IMG/VR virus record: IMGVR_UViG_2690316269_000012
DNA: 35,124 nt
Source: a virus
Taxonomy: Duplodnaviria; Heunggongvirae; Uroviricota; Caudoviricetes
Reading direction: 5' to 3' (one strand)
Position 1 is the first letter of the stretch; each line of letters starts with the position of its first letter. Under the pieces are notes generated by a model that worked only from the letters and a program-made list of their open reading frames with translations, was not told the DNA's origin and did not search any database. The position numbers were made by a program, and so were the translations under genes. This document shows positions 1 through 25,098 of the stretch, piece by piece.

Positions 1-1002
1 TTACCCTCTATTGTCAAAAGGGTTCAATTCAACAGCAGCCTCTAAATGACCTGGAGCAAAATGCGCATAACGCATAGTCATTTTTATATCGCTATGCCCC
101 AGTATTTTTTGCAACACAAGAATATTTCCGCCCCGCATCATAAAATGACTGGCAAACGTGTGACGTAGCACATGAGTTAATTGCCCATCAGGAAGCTCGA
201 TCTTCGCTCTCTTAATTGCAGCGTCAAAAGCCTCATAACATGGTGAAAATAGCGCTCCTCGTTTTTGAGGAAGCATAGCCTGCAATTGAGGTGAAATCGG
301 TACAGTGCGGTTCTTCTTTCCTTTAGTTTTAACAAATGTGATTCGACCGGGCAGTACTTGAGATTGCTTTAATCCTTCAGCTTCACTCCACCGAGCACCA
401 GTCGCAAGCCCAATACGGACAACAACCCCCAAATCTTTATTCCGTGACTCATCACACGCAATCAGAAGGCGTTCAATCTCATCTACATACAGAAACGCCA
501 GTTCCTTTTCTTCCTCACGAAACTTGCGAATACCAGTCAGGGGGTTTTCACCAGACCACTCCCCAAGGCGCTTCAGTTCGGCAAAAACAGCATGTAGATA
601 TGACTGCTCGCGATTAACGGTTGCTTCACTAAGTTTTTTCTTCCCCTTGGGATTCCATTCTCCTGATAGCCTTCTTTCCCGATAAGTAGCAAACATATTT
701 TTGTCAAACTGAGAAGCAAATGGATCCCCCAGCCTGGAACAAATCGCCTCAAGTTTGACTTTGCGCTCTGCACCAGAGGACAAGGTTTTACCGTACATCT
801 CAAACCAACGAGCAATCAACTCAGAAAGACGAGGACCAGAACCATCTTGAAACTCGTCTCCAACTCTACTATTCATTAAACGGCGCTCATAAGAGAGCGC
901 CTCACTTTTTGTCGCAAACTGTTTACGAATGCGTTTTCCCGATGCCCCGTAGGGATAACATTCGCAAAGCCATTTACCTGATGGAATCTTACGAACCGAC
1001 AT
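1..1002 (-). CDS. int: tyrosine site-specific integrase (P2-type)
   Basis: 333-aa ORF with C-terminal tyrosine-recombinase motifs (GARWSEA, HVLRHTFASHF, LGHSDIKMTMRYAHF); terminal gene of the repressor-led minus-strand operon, as in P2. Confidence 0.93.
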   Translation of the reverse strand: MSVRKIPSGKWLCECYPYGASGKRIRKQFATKSEALSYERRLMNSRVGDEFQDGSGPRLSELIARWFEMYGKTLSSGAERKVKLEAICSRLGDPFASQFDKNMFATYRERRLSGEWNPKGKKKLSEATVNREQSYLHAVFAELKRLGEWSGENPLTGIRKFREEEKELAFLYVDEIERLLIACDESRNKDLGVVVRIGLATGARWSEAEGLKQSQVLPGRITFVKTKGKKNRTVPISPQLQAMLPQKRGALFSPCYEAFDAAIKRAKIELPDGQLTHVLRHTFASHFMMRGGNILVLQKILGHSDIKMTMRYAHFAPGHLEAAVELNPFDNRG

Positions 1003-1007
1003 TTTAG

Positions 1008-1355
1008 TTACTTATCACATAAATCAAATGCAGCCTTAGTGACATCCCCCAGACTCTTTTTTAACCCTGGGGCGGCATCATTATCTAGCCAAAATGGATT
1101 ATTGTTATCTAACGGTAACGCACCAAATGTTTTACCTTTTATTCGAGCTAAACCTGTAAGCGCATATAACTTATTATCGTCAAAATTCATCACATAAGGA
1201 TTACCATCAAGACACTGTAATTGAACCTCATCAGTATTAAATGGCCATACCCCATTGAAACTCTCACGTTCAATAGTTTTAAAAGGCATTGCGACGGCGG
1301 AAAAAGAAAACATAGATAAAAAAGTAACTAATAGTTGAACCTTTTTTACTTTCAT
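1008..1355 (-). CDS. small secreted/periplasmic protein of unknown function (cargo)
   Basis: 115-aa ORF with N-terminal signal-peptide-like segment (MKVKKVQLLVTFLSMFSFSAVA) and two Cys; lies between repressor and int where P2 has no gene. Confidence 0.55.
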   Translation of the reverse strand: MKVKKVQLLVTFLSMFSFSAVAMPFKTIERESFNGVWPFNTDEVQLQCLDGNPYVMNFDDNKLYALTGLARIKGKTFGALPLDNNNPFWLDNDAAPGLKKSLGDVTKAAFDLCDK

Positions 1356-1384
1356 ATCATTACCTCAATTTAGCTCAAGTAAGA

Positions 1385-2035
1385 TTACAAATTAAAAAAC
1401 ACCCTAGAAATGGCACCGCCTACCAAAACCCCTACGCAGATAAAGAATATTATTTCTTTTGGATAAAGTCGGATTAATTCTGAAGCACGAAGTCGAACTT
1501 CTGGTAAGGCCGAACTCTCTGTGTGACTTGATGCCGATTGTTGCTCTAACCACGACAATGCAGACTGTAACTGAGAACGAGTAAGATCGTTTAAACGTCC
1601 TGTACCGAAATTGATATGGCAATACCGCAGAAGTTTTTGTCGAAGTCCACAGTCTTCACTGTTACGTAGTAATAAACTTACAAGAGTCTTACAGGCATCA
1701 TGATCTTTACATCGCTCAAGCATTGCATGCAGAAAACTCTCCGCTGTTTTATATTGATTTACTGTCATATCATCAATACCAGCTACACCAATCTCCGCAT
1801 GTACTTTTTGCCAAATAATAAACGCTTCAGTATTGCTAGCTTCTGCAATAGCAGCAACCAAGCTATTTAGCTCCTTACGCTGAGCCTTAAGCAAAGGGCG
1901 ATCGTCATCATCATTATTCGAAGGGATTGCGATATTGACGGTATGAGAACCATCATATCGCTCTATCTGAATATTCTTTTCGTGAAAATCACGCCCAGCA
2001 ACGCGATTGTTTGAACCGTTTGAGTTGACGGCCAT
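1385..2035 (-). CDS. membrane-anchored protein of unknown function (cargo)
   Basis: 216-aa ORF; soluble N-terminal region and a single C-terminal hydrophobic helix (IIFFICVGVLVGGAISRVFF); 15 nt downstream of the repressor stop. Confidence 0.55.
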   Translation of the reverse strand: MAVNSNGSNNRVAGRDFHEKNIQIERYDGSHTVNIAIPSNNDDDDRPLLKAQRKELNSLVAAIAEASNTEAFIIWQKVHAEIGVAGIDDMTVNQYKTAESFLHAMLERCKDHDACKTLVSLLLRNSEDCGLRQKLLRYCHINFGTGRLNDLTRSQLQSALSWLEQQSASSHTESSALPEVRLRASELIRLYPKEIIFFICVGVLVGGAISRVFFNL

Positions 2036-2050
2036 GTCACCTCCCTACTA

Positions 2051-2455
2051 TCACCTACCCTTAGTTTCGTTATAGTCACGACCAGCGATACGGTTATTAC
2101 CACCAGAAATATTTAACTCACGTCCTGATGGCTGAGTTTCCTTTTCACTGATCGCACCTTTTAAAGCCCCGATCACCGCGTTTTTCACATCTAACGAAGC
2201 TGCTCGAAAGCGAGTAATCAACTCCTGCTCATCATCGTTATAAGTTTCAGGTGAGTGAATTCCCAACACAACATACTGAACATCAAGGCCAAAACGAGAC
2301 AGCGCTGCCAAATACGCAGCATCAGGAAAGCTATCTCCTTTCTCATATCTAAGCTGAGTTAGCTTTTTGACTCCACCAATGTCGCTCATGGCAACTTGAC
2401 TAAGTCCCAATCTTTCCCTTTCCTCACGCAACCGCTGACCAATATCATTTTTCAT
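2051..2455 (-). CDS. C: immunity repressor, HTH XRE-family (P2 C-like)
   Basis: 134-aa ORF; N-terminal Cro/C1-type helix-turn-helix (QRLREERERLGLSQVAMSDIGGVKKLTQLRYEKG); divergent from the early operon. Confidence 0.85.
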   Translation of the reverse strand: MKNDIGQRLREERERLGLSQVAMSDIGGVKKLTQLRYEKGDSFPDAAYLAALSRFGLDVQYVVLGIHSPETYNDDEQELITRFRAASLDVKNAVIGALKGAISEKETQPSGRELNISGGNNRIAGRDYNETKGR

Positions 2456-2464
2456 ACAAAAACC

Positions 2465-2493
2465 TTGACAGGTATCTTTTTTGATACCAAAAT
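2465..2493 (+). promoter_or_regulatory. candidate early promoter (TTGACA-N17-CAAAAT) with operator-like dyad GGTATC-N6-GATACC (2471..2488) in the spacer
   Basis: -35 consensus hexamer at 2465..2470; perfect 6-bp inverted repeat between -35 and -10; sits in the 75-bp gap between divergent repressor and early genes. Confidence 0.45.
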
Positions 2494-2530
2494 GATTTCA
2501 CGAGCTATTAGATGATCACAATATACCACT

Positions 2531-2737
2531 ATGAAACAAGTTCTTCACGATACCAGATCACGCATTCCGCGTAACACCGCCACAGGTCCAAGACTGGCAC
2601 TTCGGCTGTCCCTCGAGGAGCGAGCCGTCATTGATGAAATGGCAGCTAAAGAACAACGCTCATCCTCTAACATGGCGCGCATGATCTTCCTTCGCGGCCT
2701 AGAGCTAACCCAGAAAGAACAAAACAAATCTTCCTGA
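2531..2737 (+). CDS. ribbon-helix-helix (Arc/CopG-like) DNA-binding protein
   Basis: 68-aa ORF; beta-strand then two helices pattern (PRLALRLSLEERAVIDEMAAKEQRSSSNMARMIFLRGLE); first gene of the early operon. Confidence 0.55.
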   Translation: MKQVLHDTRSRIPRNTATGPRLALRLSLEERAVIDEMAAKEQRSSSNMARMIFLRGLELTQKEQNKSS

Positions 2738-2753
2738 TCAGGAGGCTAGTGGG

Positions 2754-2957
2754 ATGTCAGGTATAACCATCAATATCAATGTGAATGCCCCCTATGTATC
2801 CCTGCAGAAATATGCAGAGATAACAGGTATCCCTCTTAATACATGCAAAAAGATGTTGGCTGACGGTCGAATTATTATCCGCCCCAAACGCGCCAAAATG
2901 GAAAAGCCTGAAGTAAACCTTGTGGCGATGTTAAAAGACGCTTTGGCTAACAGCTAA
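2754..2957 (+). CDS. cox: Cox-like excisionase / lytic-switch regulator
   Basis: 67-aa ORF; HTH region (YVSLQKYAEITGIPLNTCKKMLADGRIIIRP) resembles P2 Cox from memory; AGGAGG RBS upstream. Confidence 0.7.
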   Translation: MSGITININVNAPYVSLQKYAEITGIPLNTCKKMLADGRIIIRPKRAKMEKPEVNLVAMLKDALANS

Positions 2958-2978
2958 AACAATGAACAGAGCATCATC

Positions 2979-3329
2979 ATGAAAAAAAACACTAATAATC
3001 CATACTCCAAATTTCGTAATGGCGTAGAACGCCATGTACACCACGTCGCTACCAGTGCATCACGTAGTAACAGCCGCTATAACCTGAACGAGACGCACGC
3101 AACACCAGATGGGCACGCTGTAAAACAAATCGGCGAACACACCTGGCTGATTGAGAAAGCTGGAATCGTGGTTCACAGATGCCCACACAATCCGTTTACC
3201 GGAAACCGCATTTTTGCATTAAGCAGCGGCGATAATCAGTTCGGGCAGGATTTCACATTGTACGAAGCACTACGCACAGTCGATCGTCTGCTTCGCGGGC
3301 AAAGTTTTATTAAACAGGCTGCTTTATAA
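2979..3329 (+). CDS. hypothetical early protein
   Basis: 116-aa ORF in the early operon; no recognised domain. Confidence 0.5.
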   Translation: MKKNTNNPYSKFRNGVERHVHHVATSASRSNSRYNLNETHATPDGHAVKQIGEHTWLIEKAGIVVHRCPHNPFTGNRIFALSSGDNQFGQDFTLYEALRTVDRLLRGQSFIKQAAL

Positions 3330-4595: not shown

Positions 4596-4985
4596 ATGAT
4601 TGACGCTCATGACTTCACAAGATGGGTGCGCACACAGGACACCCGTCTGGCTCCCGTTCTTCAGGGATTATTTGATCTCTACATCCGTGGTCGTGACAAC
4701 AGAGCACGCACCACAAAACCGGAGAATGCAGACACCCTTTATTTCACAGTAGACGACTGCTACCGCGTGGACTTCACACCACACGGGCTGGCGTTGCACT
4801 GCCTGACACCACACGGCGAATCACTGCTGGCGTATTACGACTCCCCGGCCTCCATATTTGCGGCAATGCTGGCGCATCGCACTGCTGGCGGGTGTGCCTC
4901 GCTGAGTGAATACTCCGCTGAATTTAACCGCCTTTCCGCCCTCTTCTCACAGGAGTGGCAGCGCGTGACGGGATACCAGCCATGA
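4596..4985 (+). CDS. hypothetical early protein (position of P2 B/orf8x genes)
   Basis: 129-aa ORF immediately upstream of and overlapping the gene A start. Confidence 0.5.
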   Translation: MIDAHDFTRWVRTQDTRLAPVLQGLFDLYIRGRDNRARTTKPENADTLYFTVDDCYRVDFTPHGLALHCLTPHGESLLAYYDSPASIFAAMLAHRTAGGCASLSEYSAEFNRLSALFSQEWQRVTGYQP

Positions 4986-7822
4986 GTGCGTTTGCATGGA
5001 GCTGGAATGAACCACGGCCAGCCATTGATCCGGCCAGATTTACGGAGCGCAGGCAGGAAACTGAAACCGACCTGCAACGCGCCATCCGTTACTACCTTGA
5101 GGCAAACAAAAGGGCACAGGAAGAACAGGAAGCGAAGGAAGAAGCCTTTTTCGCACAATCCACCGTGGGTAAAAAACTCATGGCATCCCTTGAGGAAGCC
5201 GGACAGCGTGAAAAGCTGGCACAAAGCATCATCAGCAAGCGTCAGGCAACAGAACAAGACCCGGTGGCCCGTGCTTTTGCCACACTGAAGGTGCTTCCCG
5301 TTTATCTGCGTGAACCTCTGAGCCGCCACCTCTCTTTTCTGCGCAAGAAGCAGGAAGCCGATCGTCAGAAAGGCAAAAAGAGCTGGCAGGCTGAACGCTA
5401 CGCGCGCGGAACCCTGCGCAAAATATTCGAACGTCTGGACCGCACCGACAGCCGCTGGCTGACACCGGGCTATCGCTCCCTTGCCGGACGCGAACGCCTG
5501 GACGATTTGCTTTACCTGCCGCAGCTCAACAAACACCAGATACAGACGCTGGCCACCATGACGGCGGCGATGTTCAGTGGCACTTTTGAAAAACTCTGCG
5601 ATGGCTTTGGCGCGACCGATGGCGAGCTGACCATGGATGTAACGCTGAAGGCGTATCAGATGCTGGCCCGCATGGCGTTACACCTGCACGCTATGCCTCC
5701 ACATTATGACGCTCTGACAACAGACAAAGACCGGAGGAATGAACCGGACACGGAGCTGCTGCCGGGCGCAATCCTTCGCCTGACCTGTGCGGAATGGTGG
5801 AAACGCAAACTGTGGCTGTTACGTTGCGAGTGGAGAGAAGAACAACTCCGCGCCGCCTGTCTGGTTTCCAGAAAAACATCACCCTATCTGAGCCAGGACG
5901 CGTTAAGCGAGTTTCGCGCACAGCGCGAGAAAACACGCGATTTCCTGAAAAGTTTCATGCTGGAAAACGAAGACGGGTTCACGATTGATCTCGAGACAGT
6001 GTATTACGCGGGAGTAAGTAACCCGATTCACCGTAAGGCAGAAATGATGGCCACCATGAAGGGGCTGGAACTTCTGGCCGAAGCCCGTGGCGACAGAGCG
6101 GTGTTTCTGACTGTCACCTGCCCGTCAAAATACCACGCCACAACAGAGAACGGTCATCCGAATCCCAAATGGAACGGGGCCACCATGCGCGACTCCAGCG
6201 ATTACCTGGTTAACACGTTTTTTGCGGCGGTCCGCAAGAAACTGAACCGCGACGGCCTGCGCTGGTATGGCATCCGCACGGTGGAGCCTCACCATGACGG
6301 CACCGTGCACTGGCATATGATGGTCTTTGCTCATCCGGAAGAAATCGACACCATTGTGTCCCACACCCGCGATATTGCCATTCAGGAAGACCGCCACGAG
6401 CTGGGCAATGATATTACTCCGCGCTTTAAGGTGGAGTATGTCGACGGCTCAAAAGGCACGCCAACCAGCTACATCGCCACCTACATCGGAAAGAACCTGG
6501 ACAGCCGCGCCGTGGATGGCATCGACCCGAAAACGGGCAAGCCACGCGTTGACCACGAAACCGGAAAATCAATGGCCGAGAGCGTGGAACGCGCCATCGG
6601 CTGGGCACGCCTTCACCGGGTCCGCCAGTTCCAGTTCTTTGGCATCCCCTCCCGTCAGGTATGGCGTGAACTCCGCCGCCTTGCCAGCCAGATGGCACGC
6701 AACCCGGAAGGCCCACAACGGCTGAAGGATGATGCAATGGATGCGGTACTCGCTGCCGCTGATGCCGGATGTTTTGCCACCTACATTGAAAAACAGGGTG
6801 GCGTACTTGTTCCGCGCAAGGACTACCTGATTCGCACAGCCTACGACCTCGCAGATGAGCTGAACGATTACGGCGAACAGAGTGTACAGATTTACGGGAT
6901 CTGGTCGCCATTCATCGGGGAATCCTCCCGTGTGTGCACGCATCCGGATAACTGGAAGCTGGTAAGACGTAAACCGGAAGCGGAAGACAGCGCCCGCGAA
7001 AATGGTTTTGACCTTCAGGGCGGCCCTGCCGCCCCTTGGACTCGTGGCAATAACTGTCCCCGTGTACAGGAAACAGGCAACAACGGGACAGAACAGCCGG
7101 AAGAACGGCCAGCACCGTGGCCGCAGCTTCCTGACGGCGTTGAAGTAAATGAATGGATGCGCTCACTGAAACGGCACGAACGCCGGGCGCTGATGCGTTC
7201 GCTTCGTGACAAACAGGCAAAAAACAGCAGCGATGAAATGCAGAACTGGACACAGAGCCGCAAACAGCAGCGGCCTTTGCCTGATAACCACGAGTTACTC
7301 GCTAAAGAATGGCGGGAGTCTGCTGAATCTCTCGGCCTGCATATCGGTGAACAACAGATGCAGCACCTGTTACGGGGCGGCAGTCTGTACGTTGACGGCA
7401 GCATCATTGCACCGCAGGGATTTGAAATTGTACGCAAACCGGATACCCGCCCGGACAGCCGAATCACGCAGCTCTGGCAGCGTCTGAGCCGTAATCATGG
7501 CGTAAGCAGCACGGAGATCCGCCATAACCCGGTCGCCAGCTATCTGGCACAGCTGGGGGCATCAGACCCTGAAGCCGCCGCACGCCTGGCATCCACACTT
7601 CAGCAGGACCAGAACACCATGAAAACACCCGTTACCGTGCTTTCTGACATGCTGCGCGCCATCCGCGACGCAGAGCACGCACAGAGAATCAGTGAAACCA
7701 CTGAACGCGCCAGCCGCAAAGCAGACCTGCTGCGGGGTGGCCTGACCAGTGGAAACAAAAAACAGACAGAAACGGGACTCACGAATCCCGTAAATGAGCA
7801 AAAAACGCGCAGCGATATATGA
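4982..7822 (+). CDS. A: rolling-circle replication initiator endonuclease (P2 gpA family)
   Basis: 946 aa from ATG at 4982; HUH-type motif (GTVHWHMMVF) and overall resemblance to P2 gene A product; longer than P2 A (about 761 aa) with a C-terminal extension. Confidence 0.88.
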   Translation: MSAFAWSWNEPRPAIDPARFTERRQETETDLQRAIRYYLEANKRAQEEQEAKEEAFFAQSTVGKKLMASLEEAGQREKLAQSIISKRQATEQDPVARAFATLKVLPVYLREPLSRHLSFLRKKQEADRQKGKKSWQAERYARGTLRKIFERLDRTDSRWLTPGYRSLAGRERLDDLLYLPQLNKHQIQTLATMTAAMFSGTFEKLCDGFGATDGELTMDVTLKAYQMLARMALHLHAMPPHYDALTTDKDRRNEPDTELLPGAILRLTCAEWWKRKLWLLRCEWREEQLRAACLVSRKTSPYLSQDALSEFRAQREKTRDFLKSFMLENEDGFTIDLETVYYAGVSNPIHRKAEMMATMKGLELLAEARGDRAVFLTVTCPSKYHATTENGHPNPKWNGATMRDSSDYLVNTFFAAVRKKLNRDGLRWYGIRTVEPHHDGTVHWHMMVFAHPEEIDTIVSHTRDIAIQEDRHELGNDITPRFKVEYVDGSKGTPTSYIATYIGKNLDSRAVDGIDPKTGKPRVDHETGKSMAESVERAIGWARLHRVRQFQFFGIPSRQVWRELRRLASQMARNPEGPQRLKDDAMDAVLAAADAGCFATYIEKQGGVLVPRKDYLIRTAYDLADELNDYGEQSVQIYGIWSPFIGESSRVCTHPDNWKLVRRKPEAEDSARENGFDLQGGPAAPWTRGNNCPRVQETGNNGTEQPEERPAPWPQLPDGVEVNEWMRSLKRHERRALMRSLRDKQAKNSSDEMQNWTQSRKQQRPLPDNHELLAKEWRESAESLGLHIGEQQMQHLLRGGSLYVDGSIIAPQGFEIVRKPDTRPDSRITQLWQRLSRNHGVSSTEIRHNPVASYLAQLGASDPEAAARLASTLQQDQNTMKTPVTVLSDMLRAIRDAEHAQRISETTERASRKADLLRGGLTSGNKKQTETGLTNPVNEQKTRSDI

Positions 7823-24520: not shown

Positions 24521-25098
24521 TGACATTCAGAATGAGTGAACACTCACGGACCATAAAAATTTATAATCTACTGACCGGAACCAATGAGTTTATTGGTGAA
24601 GGTGATGCATACATTCCACCTCATACAGGTCTGCCTGCAAACAGTACCGATATTGCCCCGCCAGATATTCCGGCTGGCTTCGTGGCCGTTTTCAACAGTG
24701 ATGAGGCATCGTGGCATCTCGTTGAAGACCATCGGGGTAAAACGGTTTATGACGTGGCATCAGGGGACTCGTTATTTATTTCTGAACTCGGTCCATTACC
24801 GGAAAATGTTACCTGGTTGTCGCCGTATGGAGAGTATCAGAAGTGGAACGGCACATCCTGGGTGAAAGATGCAGAAGCAGAAAAACTGTTTCGGATAAGG
24901 GAGGCGGAAGAAACAAAAAACAGCCTGATGCAGGTAGCCAGCGAGCATATTGCGCCACTTCAGGATGCCGTAGATTTGGATATTGCAACGGAGGAAGAGG
25001 CATCGTTACTGGCTGCATGGAAGACATACCGGGTATTGTTGAATCGTGTTAATACAGCGGTAGCAGCGGATGTTGAGTGGCCAGTCGCCCCACAATAA
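24520..25098 (+). CDS. G: tail fibre assembly chaperone G
   Basis: 192 aa; ATGA overlap with H; position. Confidence 0.8.

Follow-up and report, generated by a model that had tools for sequence, protein, structure and literature searches.

The fungal HET-S/NWD2 system (HRAM) is a pair of adjacent genes whose products carry a matched motif, which may be present as two pseudo-repeats in one protein and as one in the other and is unstructured until assembled. In the SinR/SinI pair of Bacillus subtilis, the region common to the two proteins is a helical hook by which the antagonist engages a helix-turn-helix (HTH) repressor. The tails of HTH antitoxins in type II toxin–antitoxin (TA) modules, such as HipB, MqsA, and HigA, are not known to have a sequence motif in common with the toxin, and Flk, a flagella biosynthesis regulator of Salmonella and Escherichia coli, has a C-terminal membrane anchor. 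Bacterial amyloid signaling sequence (BASS) motifs are about 20-25 residues long, are rich in Q, N, G, V, and I but poor in K, P, and L, and are encoded by collinear genes (bioRxiv 10.1101/2020.01.06.895854); one such pair, Bab/Agp (BASS11), is found in defense islands of E. coli prophages (bioRxiv 10.1101/2024.11.07.622273). Here, we analyze a window of 35,124 nt, the whole stretch of DNA of IMG/VR virus record IMGVR_UViG_2690316269_000012. This DNA makes up a complete prophage, which is P2-like and belongs to the genus Xuanwuvirus of the Peduoviridae. We describe in it a predicted immunity repressor whose C-terminal tail matches the N-terminus of a membrane-anchored protein, called the partner below, that is encoded by the next gene.

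On the sequence evidence presented here, the repressor and the next gene probably form a conserved two-gene immunity module, in which the two copies of the peptide would interact directly and so link the repressor with its membrane partner. The pair resembles BASS in gene layout and in the type of peptide, and by analogy it may work in a similar way. It is not classed as BASS because it has neither of the partners that define those systems, a sensor such as a NOD-like receptor (NLR) and a death effector such as Bell.

A Shared Peptide at a Gene Junction

The pair is defined by the following features of the window.

2051..2455, minus strand: repressor gene, 134 amino acids (aa), with an XRE-type HTH
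2066..2116, minus strand: repressor tail motif LNISGGNNRIAGRDYNE, residues 114-130, followed by TKGR and the stop codon
2036..2050, minus strand: gene junction of 15 nt, with two extra in-frame stops (TAG TAG) and the ribosome-binding site GGGAGGTG
1385..2035, minus strand: partner gene, 216 aa, with the motif at its N-terminus, a helical domain resembling Flk_N, and a transmembrane (TM) anchor at its C-terminus
1979..2029, minus strand: partner N-terminal motif copy VNSNGSNNRVAGRDFHE, residues 3-19

The C-terminal end of the repressor reads ...ELNISGGNNRIAGRDYNETKGR, its final residues also being written ...LNISGGNNRIAGRDYNETKGR, and the partner open reading frame (ORF) begins MAVNSNGSNNRVAGRDFHEKNIQ, its opening residues also being written MAVNSNGSNNRVAGRDFHE... 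The best local alignment of the repressor tail with the partner N-terminus spans 17 residues, 10 of them identical, and has a BLOSUM62 score of 62; composition-preserving shuffles of both termini score 20.3 ± 4.1 with a maximum of 52, and none of 20,000 reaches 62. A preliminary description of this DNA had reported a common motif at the two termini, and these scores confirm it. The motif it gave, NNR(I/V)AGRD, is indeed present, but not at the stated length of nine residues, as the core comprises eight residues and the best alignment 17. The pairwise DNA alignment that it suggested as a check matches a 13-residue stretch at 2104..2066 in the repressor gene with 2017..1979 in the partner gene, without gaps and with identity at 27 of 39 positions; the best of the shuffled 39-mers has 24 identities, so that all 300 shuffles fall below the observed value. 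The imperfect direct DNA repeat that had been noticed is real, and the coordinates given for it, 1996..2022 and 2085..2111, point to the right places although they are about 10 nt off. A chance-level alignment together with homologs devoid of the motif had been named as grounds for dropping the idea; instead, the match exceeds the shuffles and nearly all homologs of both proteins keep the motif.

From the repressor stop through the spacer, the sequence reads TGA TAG TAG GGA GGT GAC, and both genes are in the same frame. Three successive in-frame stops, TGA TAG TAG (window 2042..2053, minus strand), end the repressor ORF, and the partner ORF follows in the same frame 15 nt on. A scan for promoters and terminators detected neither between the repressor and partner genes.

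The preliminary description had raised the possibility of a recombination scar at a cargo insertion point, and a recent duplication or gene conversion there belongs to the same class of explanation. Such an event would agree with an imperfect direct DNA repeat that flanks the gene junction, its copies 87 nt apart and in frame. The synonymous sites are, however, randomized: where the tail and the partner carry the same amino acid, the codons are identical at 4 of 10 positions in the window and at 154 of 319 positions over 34 loci, against 145.7 expected. Since codon identity is no higher than codon usage predicts, the similarity of tail and partner is kept at the protein level only. Moreover, both families conserve the motif across bacterial orders, many loci have an out-of-frame overlap of the two genes (ATGA), and every enteric phage examined that has this type of repressor also carries the partner. 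A scar or recent copying event is thus highly improbable. An in-frame fusion of the two genes via recombination between the repeats was also considered and rejected because the identity is 69% over 39 nt and because most other loci have the out-of-frame overlap.

Close relatives retain both copies of the motif. Nearly all of about 120 partner homologs (at least 59% identity), whose hosts include Klebsiella, Serratia, Erwinia, and Enterobacter, keep an N-terminal NSxGxxNRx[AS]GRD[FY]xE. The tail consensus in close repressor relatives is [IV]N[IV]SGxGNR[IV]AGRD[YF][NH]E, and most close repressor homologs end INVSGxGNR[IV]AGRD[YF]NExKK. A tailed HTH gene lies 2-25 nt upstream in 84 of 85 IMG/VR loci with a partner homolog. 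Among 5426 complete E. coli genomes, 520 match the pair, O157:H7 included, and in 514 of these both genes are covered over at least 80% of the query; the annotation there is merely that of a hypothetical or membrane protein and an HTH protein. The variable part of these loci is the slot between the partner gene and the integrase gene (int), which in the window is bounded and filled as follows.

1008..1355, minus strand: DUF2511 gene (phrog_2950), located after the partner gene and before int; its 115-aa product has an N-terminus resembling a signal peptide
1..1002, minus strand: integrase

An unrelated 288-aa gene occupies this slot in Klebsiella. The true cargo (moron) position in the lysogenic operon appears to be the slot that the DUF2511 gene fills here, and the 216-aa gene is instead a fixed neighbor of this repressor type. 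Together with the randomized synonymous sites and the conservation of the motif in both families, this fixed position led us to abandon the earlier idea of a scar at a cargo insertion point. A comparison of repressor C-termini with prophages that lack the 216-aa gene had also been proposed earlier. P88, a phage of the same genus without the 216-aa gene, has a different repressor type, a 93-aa P2-type C that lies directly beside int and carries no tail, and its entire immunity cassette is different.

Matched Pairs in Other Temperate Phages

Genome loci of 8 kb encoding relatives of the repressor were collected, 80 in number. In about 35 of them, an HTH protein has a G/N/Q/V-rich tail with a cluster of lysine and arginine residues (K/R), and the gene directly downstream opens with a similar peptide. 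The hosts of these loci include Enterobacterales, Gilliamella, Pseudomonas, Aeromonas, Bordetella, Burkholderia, Rhodocyclaceae, Aggregatibacter, Cellvibrio, and others. The gene junctions are collinear, often with a 4-nt overlap (ATGA) that places the genes out of frame in many loci, and with a gap of 2-25 nt in enteric loci. Examples of the matched termini are as follows.

L018: repressor tail QQINGPISGGVAGRDFVQ, partner N-terminus QEINGDVEGGIAGRDIVR
L023: repressor tail TVDYGNAQIGQASAGDIVN, partner N-terminus TVSFGGAQIDQAAAGDINN
L017: repressor tail QIFNGDISGQFAGNQIIN, partner N-terminus QEFNGTAQGQFSSRDIIN
Pseudomonas phage B3: ORF18 ISVTGDGNRTAGRDFHE, ORF20 IEVTGSNNIVAGRDFIE
Matched pairs in other phages: Ps59 gp17/gp18, Burkholderia KS10 gp13/gp12, BcepMu gp17/gp18

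The two copies change together. In a set of 39 non-redundant loci, the alignment score of the tail is 36.6 with the N-terminus encoded downstream at the same locus, compared with 20.7 for the N-termini of other loci (permutation z = 12.4; 0 of 100,000 permutations reach the observed sum), and the own partner is ranked first in 14 loci and within the top three in 20. The cognate pairing beats the swapped pairing in 289 of 300 locus pairs, where about 50% would be expected under independent evolution after an old duplication. Because independent drift would leave tails no closer to their own partners than to others, this cognate excess indicates concerted change. When all ORF N-termini on both strands of each locus were scanned, the best tail match at a score of at least 38 was always downstream on the same strand, and it was the immediate neighbor in all of these loci except L055, in which the higher score belongs to the second of two downstream genes with the motif. 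A match that recurs and changes in step across many unrelated temperate phages points to a physical link between repressor and membrane protein. The literature searched contains no description of such a motif pair, and nothing relevant was found on Flk-like prophage proteins or CP-933T. A shared interaction peptide, the other possibility mentioned in the preliminary description, is supported indirectly but strongly by the co-variation across many loci, from which we infer binding.

Several motif classes, each with its own partner, occur within one genus: Pseudomonas has the B3, L014, and L026 classes, and Pectobacterium has two. Distinct classes that coexist in one host genus argue against a common host receptor. 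They bear in the same way on a broader explanation, in which a common third factor (a host protease, chaperone, or targeting system, the membrane, or DNA) recognizes both peptides and these make no mutual contact. Both copies are terminal, disordered, and exposed, as degrons or targeting signals are, and the repressor tails end in the K/R cluster that the partner copies lack, which agrees with a third factor. A host factor would, however, have to co-vary with each phage, and no third conserved gene accompanies the pair, so that we regard this explanation as improbable.

The pair extends to Mu-like phages, as in B3, KS10, and BcepMu the HTH gene is the annotated repressor and is divergent from a Ner-like gene. 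HTH relatives without the tail have no such partner, for example, Pseudomonas genes that lie beside a response regulator. A profile search of 1.84 billion representative proteins yielded 167 clusters at E ≤ 1e-30 and 4630 at E ≤ 1e-10, and most members of 125-170 aa finish in such a tail. A search with a profile of diverse partners returned almost exclusively the enteric sequences found before.

Outside the motif, the bodies of the partners are diverse and unrelated, comprising Flk_N with one TM helix; a coiled coil, a TM helix, and a Cys-containing C-terminal domain; a zinc ribbon with a TM helix; and two-TM proteins. The matching N-terminus is present in all of them and a predicted membrane anchor in most, though not in all, and ten diverse partners searched against Pfam gave no significant match. 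The smallest partner, in Thiothrix lacustris (L031, 4520..4693), consists of 57 aa, namely the matching peptide VEIQGDVGQVFAGDIGQVHIHY and one hydrophobic TM helix; an ORF of this size is easily overlooked by gene callers. In L059 the partner starts 255 nt downstream. In L055, a Cellvibrio metagenome-assembled genome, two successive genes that begin about 17 nt and 467 nt past the HTH stop open with HQHFHQPVGVVAGRD and LTQEFNGNVGQVAGGNIYNYY, which suggests that one repressor may have more than one partner. The partners of 260-330 aa in L015, L016, L023, and L049/L090 (Aeromonas, Jeongeupia, Burkholderia/BcepMu gp18) have a coiled coil and one TM helix. Their C-terminal domain is conserved and contains cysteines (C.F.GK.Y..GS...C), the sole database hint being a weak match to DUF1496. 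This domain probably lies outside the cytoplasm and might be a sensing domain.

The Repressor, Its Partner, and Their Predicted Contact

The repressor consists of an XRE-type HTH domain (about residues 1-65), two helices (74-105), and a disordered tail. It matches the Pfam HTH_31/HTH_3 and PHROG transcriptional repressor families, its family profile finds the P22 C2 repressor in the PDB, and its AlphaFold2 (AF2) model, which is confidently folded over residues 1-105, retrieves P22 C2, SinR, and P2 C in Foldseek. Its gene is divergent from an Arc-like and a Cox-like gene, as is C in P2-like phages.

2531..2737, plus strand: Arc-like ribbon-helix-helix gene (phrog_3431, E = 1e-28), first of the early operon
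2754..2957, plus strand: Cox-like gene, after the Arc-like gene

An HTH gene divergent from these two occupies the position of the immunity repressor C in P2-like phages. Having both the HTH domain and the position at the lysis–lysogeny switch, the protein is a predicted phage immunity repressor of the XRE/P22 C2 type. Assignment as a P2 C-type repressor was rejected, as there is no sequence or profile similarity, the 93-aa C of P88 is unrelated in its tail, and the only match to P2 C is a structural one of the generic HTH kind.

The partner belongs to phrog_5825 (E = 4e-102) and has a precomputed match to Pfam PF27202 Flk_N. Its parts, with the AF2 predicted local distance difference test (pLDDT) where it applies, are as follows.

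1919..1978, minus strand: possible degenerate second pseudo-repeat KNIQIERYDGSHTVNIAIPS, residues 20-39, pLDDT < 50
1520..1900, minus strand: Flk_N-like all-helical cytoplasmic domain, residues 46-172, pLDDT > 90
1391..1477, minus strand: C-terminal TM anchor, about residues 187-215 (hydropathy 187-206; AF2 helix 192-215)

The partner shares homology with Flk over residues 37-166, which correspond to the N-terminal region of that protein, and both proteins have a C-terminal membrane anchor; the partner differs from Flk in being a prophage-encoded protein of 216 aa whose motif lies outside the Flk-homologous region. Orthology with Flk was rejected, as the match to the NCBIfam equivalog NF007987 (E = 9e-16) covers residues 37-166 only and reaches 58.1 bits against a curated cut-off of 353, which makes the partner a domain-level relative (Flk_N). 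The AF2 model places helices at residues 50-67, 71-82, 92-125, 129-143, and 153-172, and Foldseek searches of this domain against the PDB and BFVD found no significant structural relative. The hydrophobic C-terminus is kept in partner homologs. Apart from Flk_N, searches of PADLOC, Pfam, and NCBIfam assigned the partner no function, and they gave no toxin match. There is moderate support for reading residues 20-39 as a second pseudo-repeat of the motif: the second unit is plainly a repeat in relatives (NRVAGRDFNE...QFVGRDLVNI in L024; RAASRDFHE..VQAGRDVIS in L020), and MAFFT places the single motif of Pseudomonas and Bordetella partners onto these residues.

In the reading that we favor, the disordered repressor tail and the cytoplasmic N-terminus of the partner are two copies of one short, beta-prone, G/N/Q/V-rich peptide. 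The copies would pair homotypically, strand to strand or by stacking of rungs, and in this way the lysogeny repressor would be linked to a membrane protein made from its own operon. The peptide sequence would determine specificity, and heteroimmune phages would then carry orthogonal pairs. Mutual binding is suggested because the copies change together, because classes coexist in one genus, and because the partners recur in their N-terminal match and, for the most part, in their anchor. Both copies have pLDDT < 50 and no secondary structure, the partner copy in both AF2 models, and the flanking domains have pLDDT > 90 in both models, which fits a peptide that becomes ordered only upon binding. 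The partner may be a membrane-based sensor akin to an anti-repressor, which tethers, titrates, or inactivates the repressor; the repressor tail may instead restrain the membrane protein, or amyloid-like templating may join the two.

Several observations qualify the case for mutual binding. The loci are phylogenetically related, so that the permutation counts and the quartet counts of cognate versus swapped pairings overstate the number of independent events. The tails in L021, L033, and L035 have no convincing partner in the scan of ORF N-termini, which suggests that a tail may also act alone. In an AF2 monomer run of a fusion of repressor, GGD, and partner, the motifs were unpaired and both were disordered; the alignment was poor there, MAFFT having put the tails of repressor homologs on the partner motif, and the run does not bear on pairing. 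The R and D conserved in the core are awkward for an in-register parallel stack. Residue matching within the enteric class is loose, with V in the repressor opposite I, T, A, or S in the partner, and position-by-position identity within this class gave no clear signal.

A more specific proposal, drawn by analogy and in our view doubtful, is that the two peptides together constitute a signaling motif of a prion-like kind, amyloid or beta-solenoid, that acts as a lysogeny switch. Clustering or conformational change of the partner, caused for example by damage to the envelope or membrane potential or by superinfection, would nucleate a cross-beta assembly, and this assembly would recruit and template repressor tails, strip the repressor from DNA in an all-or-none manner, and so bring about prophage induction; if the signal ran the other way, the tails of the repressor would set off a membrane effector. 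The comparison with BASS (BASS1-10, Bell/NLR; BASS11, Bab/Agp) is the closest one. In both, a peptide is common to a C-terminus and to the N-terminus of the product of an adjacent collinear gene, and the junctions are short or overlapping (15 nt in the window, -4 in many loci, and 2-25 nt in enteric loci). The length and composition of the peptides are also those of BASS: segments here are enriched in N (3.3-fold), G (2.4-fold), V (1.8-fold), Q (1.7-fold), and I (1.2-fold), L (0.1-fold), P (0.5-fold), K (0.5-fold), and E are depleted, and the aligned cores have 10-31 residues, typically 17-19. The monomer models are disordered, one side may carry a pseudo-repeat, and, like Bab/Agp, the pair occurs in E. 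coli prophages. In contrast to BASS, an XRE repressor is paired here with a protein anchored in the membrane, whether Flk_N-like or of another kind, and both a sensor (NLR, TPR, or other) and a Bell or HeLo effector are absent; the downstream proteins showed no NB-ARC, NACHT, TPR, Bell, or other significant Pfam or PADLOC match. The polarity also differs, the N-terminal copy being on the membrane protein and the C-terminal copy on a soluble DNA-binding protein, and so do the hosts, which are unicellular Proteobacteria with their P2-like and Mu-like phages, and the core, which has the conserved R and D. With HET-S/NWD2 the pair shares a matched motif in adjacent genes and, with moderate support, one partner that is possibly two-repeat, but it has no HeLo domain and no NLR.

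A variant of mutual binding that we hold as a tentative possibility follows the SinR/SinI model. The tail would primarily serve to assemble repressor dimers into higher-order complexes on operators, and the partner N-terminus, as a copy of the tail, would compete with it and, in the manner of an anti-repressor, titrate the repressor or tether it at the membrane. SinR in the SinR/SinI complex (1b0n) is the second-best structural match of the repressor model, with 103 columns aligned over the HTH and the two helices, and in both systems an HTH repressor has a short region in common with the adjacent gene product. The few tail-bearing repressors without a detectable partner agree with a tail that functions by itself, and the helical domain of the partner has weak matches to anti-repressor families (phrog_245 Ant, E = 0.004; a BFVD ORF6C-domain protein, E = 0.03). 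These matches are, however, below significance, and a repressor produced with a constitutive antagonist from one operon would require an extra trigger. The shared peptide also differs from that of SinR/SinI in lying past helices 74-105, in being G/N-rich and predicted to be disordered, and in having a membrane-anchored partner. Pairing through a helical hook of the SinR/SinI type was rejected, as the shared segment has no predicted secondary structure.

It is unlikely, but worth weighing against mutual binding in immunity control, that the two genes are a TA-like or abortive-infection module. A latent membrane-damaging effector would assemble via its N-terminal peptide, the repressor tail would cap it, and loss or inactivation of the repressor would release it. 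The layout is that of a type II TA operon, in which the gene for an HTH protein with a disordered tail at its C-terminus comes first and the second gene often overlaps it by 4 nt. The minimal partners are small proteins with one or two TM helices and weak matches to holin families (E = 0.06-0.08), and the region between int and the primase gene is a minor defense hotspot in P2-like phages (PMC13586616). Against such a module, the partner has no PADLOC match, ten diverse partners have no significant Pfam match, the HTH protein stands in the immunity-repressor position in both P2-like and Mu-like phages, and a toxin freed at induction would hurt the lytic cycle of the phage itself. The differences from known type II systems are that the downstream proteins match no toxin family and that the HTH protein is the prophage immunity repressor; HTH antitoxins of such systems appear as weak matches in the HTH only. 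A type II TA module proper was rejected on the absence of any PADLOC, Pfam, or NCBIfam toxin match for the downstream gene.

The question of how exit from lysogeny is sensed concerns P2-like and many Mu-like prophages that have no self-cleaving repressor. If the sequence-specific peptide link exists, it would be a new point at which lysogeny, immunity, or exclusion is controlled; the pair occurs in about a tenth of complete E. coli genomes, O157:H7 among them, and in the model phages B3 and BcepMu. If the link is also amyloid-like, prion-type templating would operate inside a classic genetic switch and the range of bacterial amyloid signaling would be much wider. With a prion-like switch, such signaling would reach past NLR and cell-death pairs to the control of transcription in phages, P2-like and Mu-like, that infect common Proteobacteria, and induction would have an SOS-independent route. 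The co-varying motif offers a simple genomic rule for locating such pairs.

The Prophage and Its Database Records

The closest phage over the first 3.4 kb of the window is Escherichia phage 520873, with 97% identity. In its RefSeq record (L001, NC_049344.1, locus 1001..3043), the integrase is split in two coding sequences, and the 216-aa gene is unannotated and is recovered by tblastn in three pieces; these fragmented genes are probably due to frameshifts or sequencing errors in that record. In an O157:H7 RefSeq record, the annotation omits the Arc-like gene and has in its place a 45-aa ORF of the opposite strand. The early side of P88 holds just one larger Cox.

No plausible SOS box was found in the window, the single CTGT-N8-ACAG lying inside the replication gene at chance level. 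The replication (gpA-like) ORF at 4955..7822 (plus strand) encodes 955 aa from a GTG start and overlaps the end of the preceding ORF at 4596..4985, so that its true start may be further downstream. In the tail-fiber region, Rfam RF02111 (IS009) has a full-length match at 24863..25061 (plus strand), with 192 bits against a gathering score of 117.

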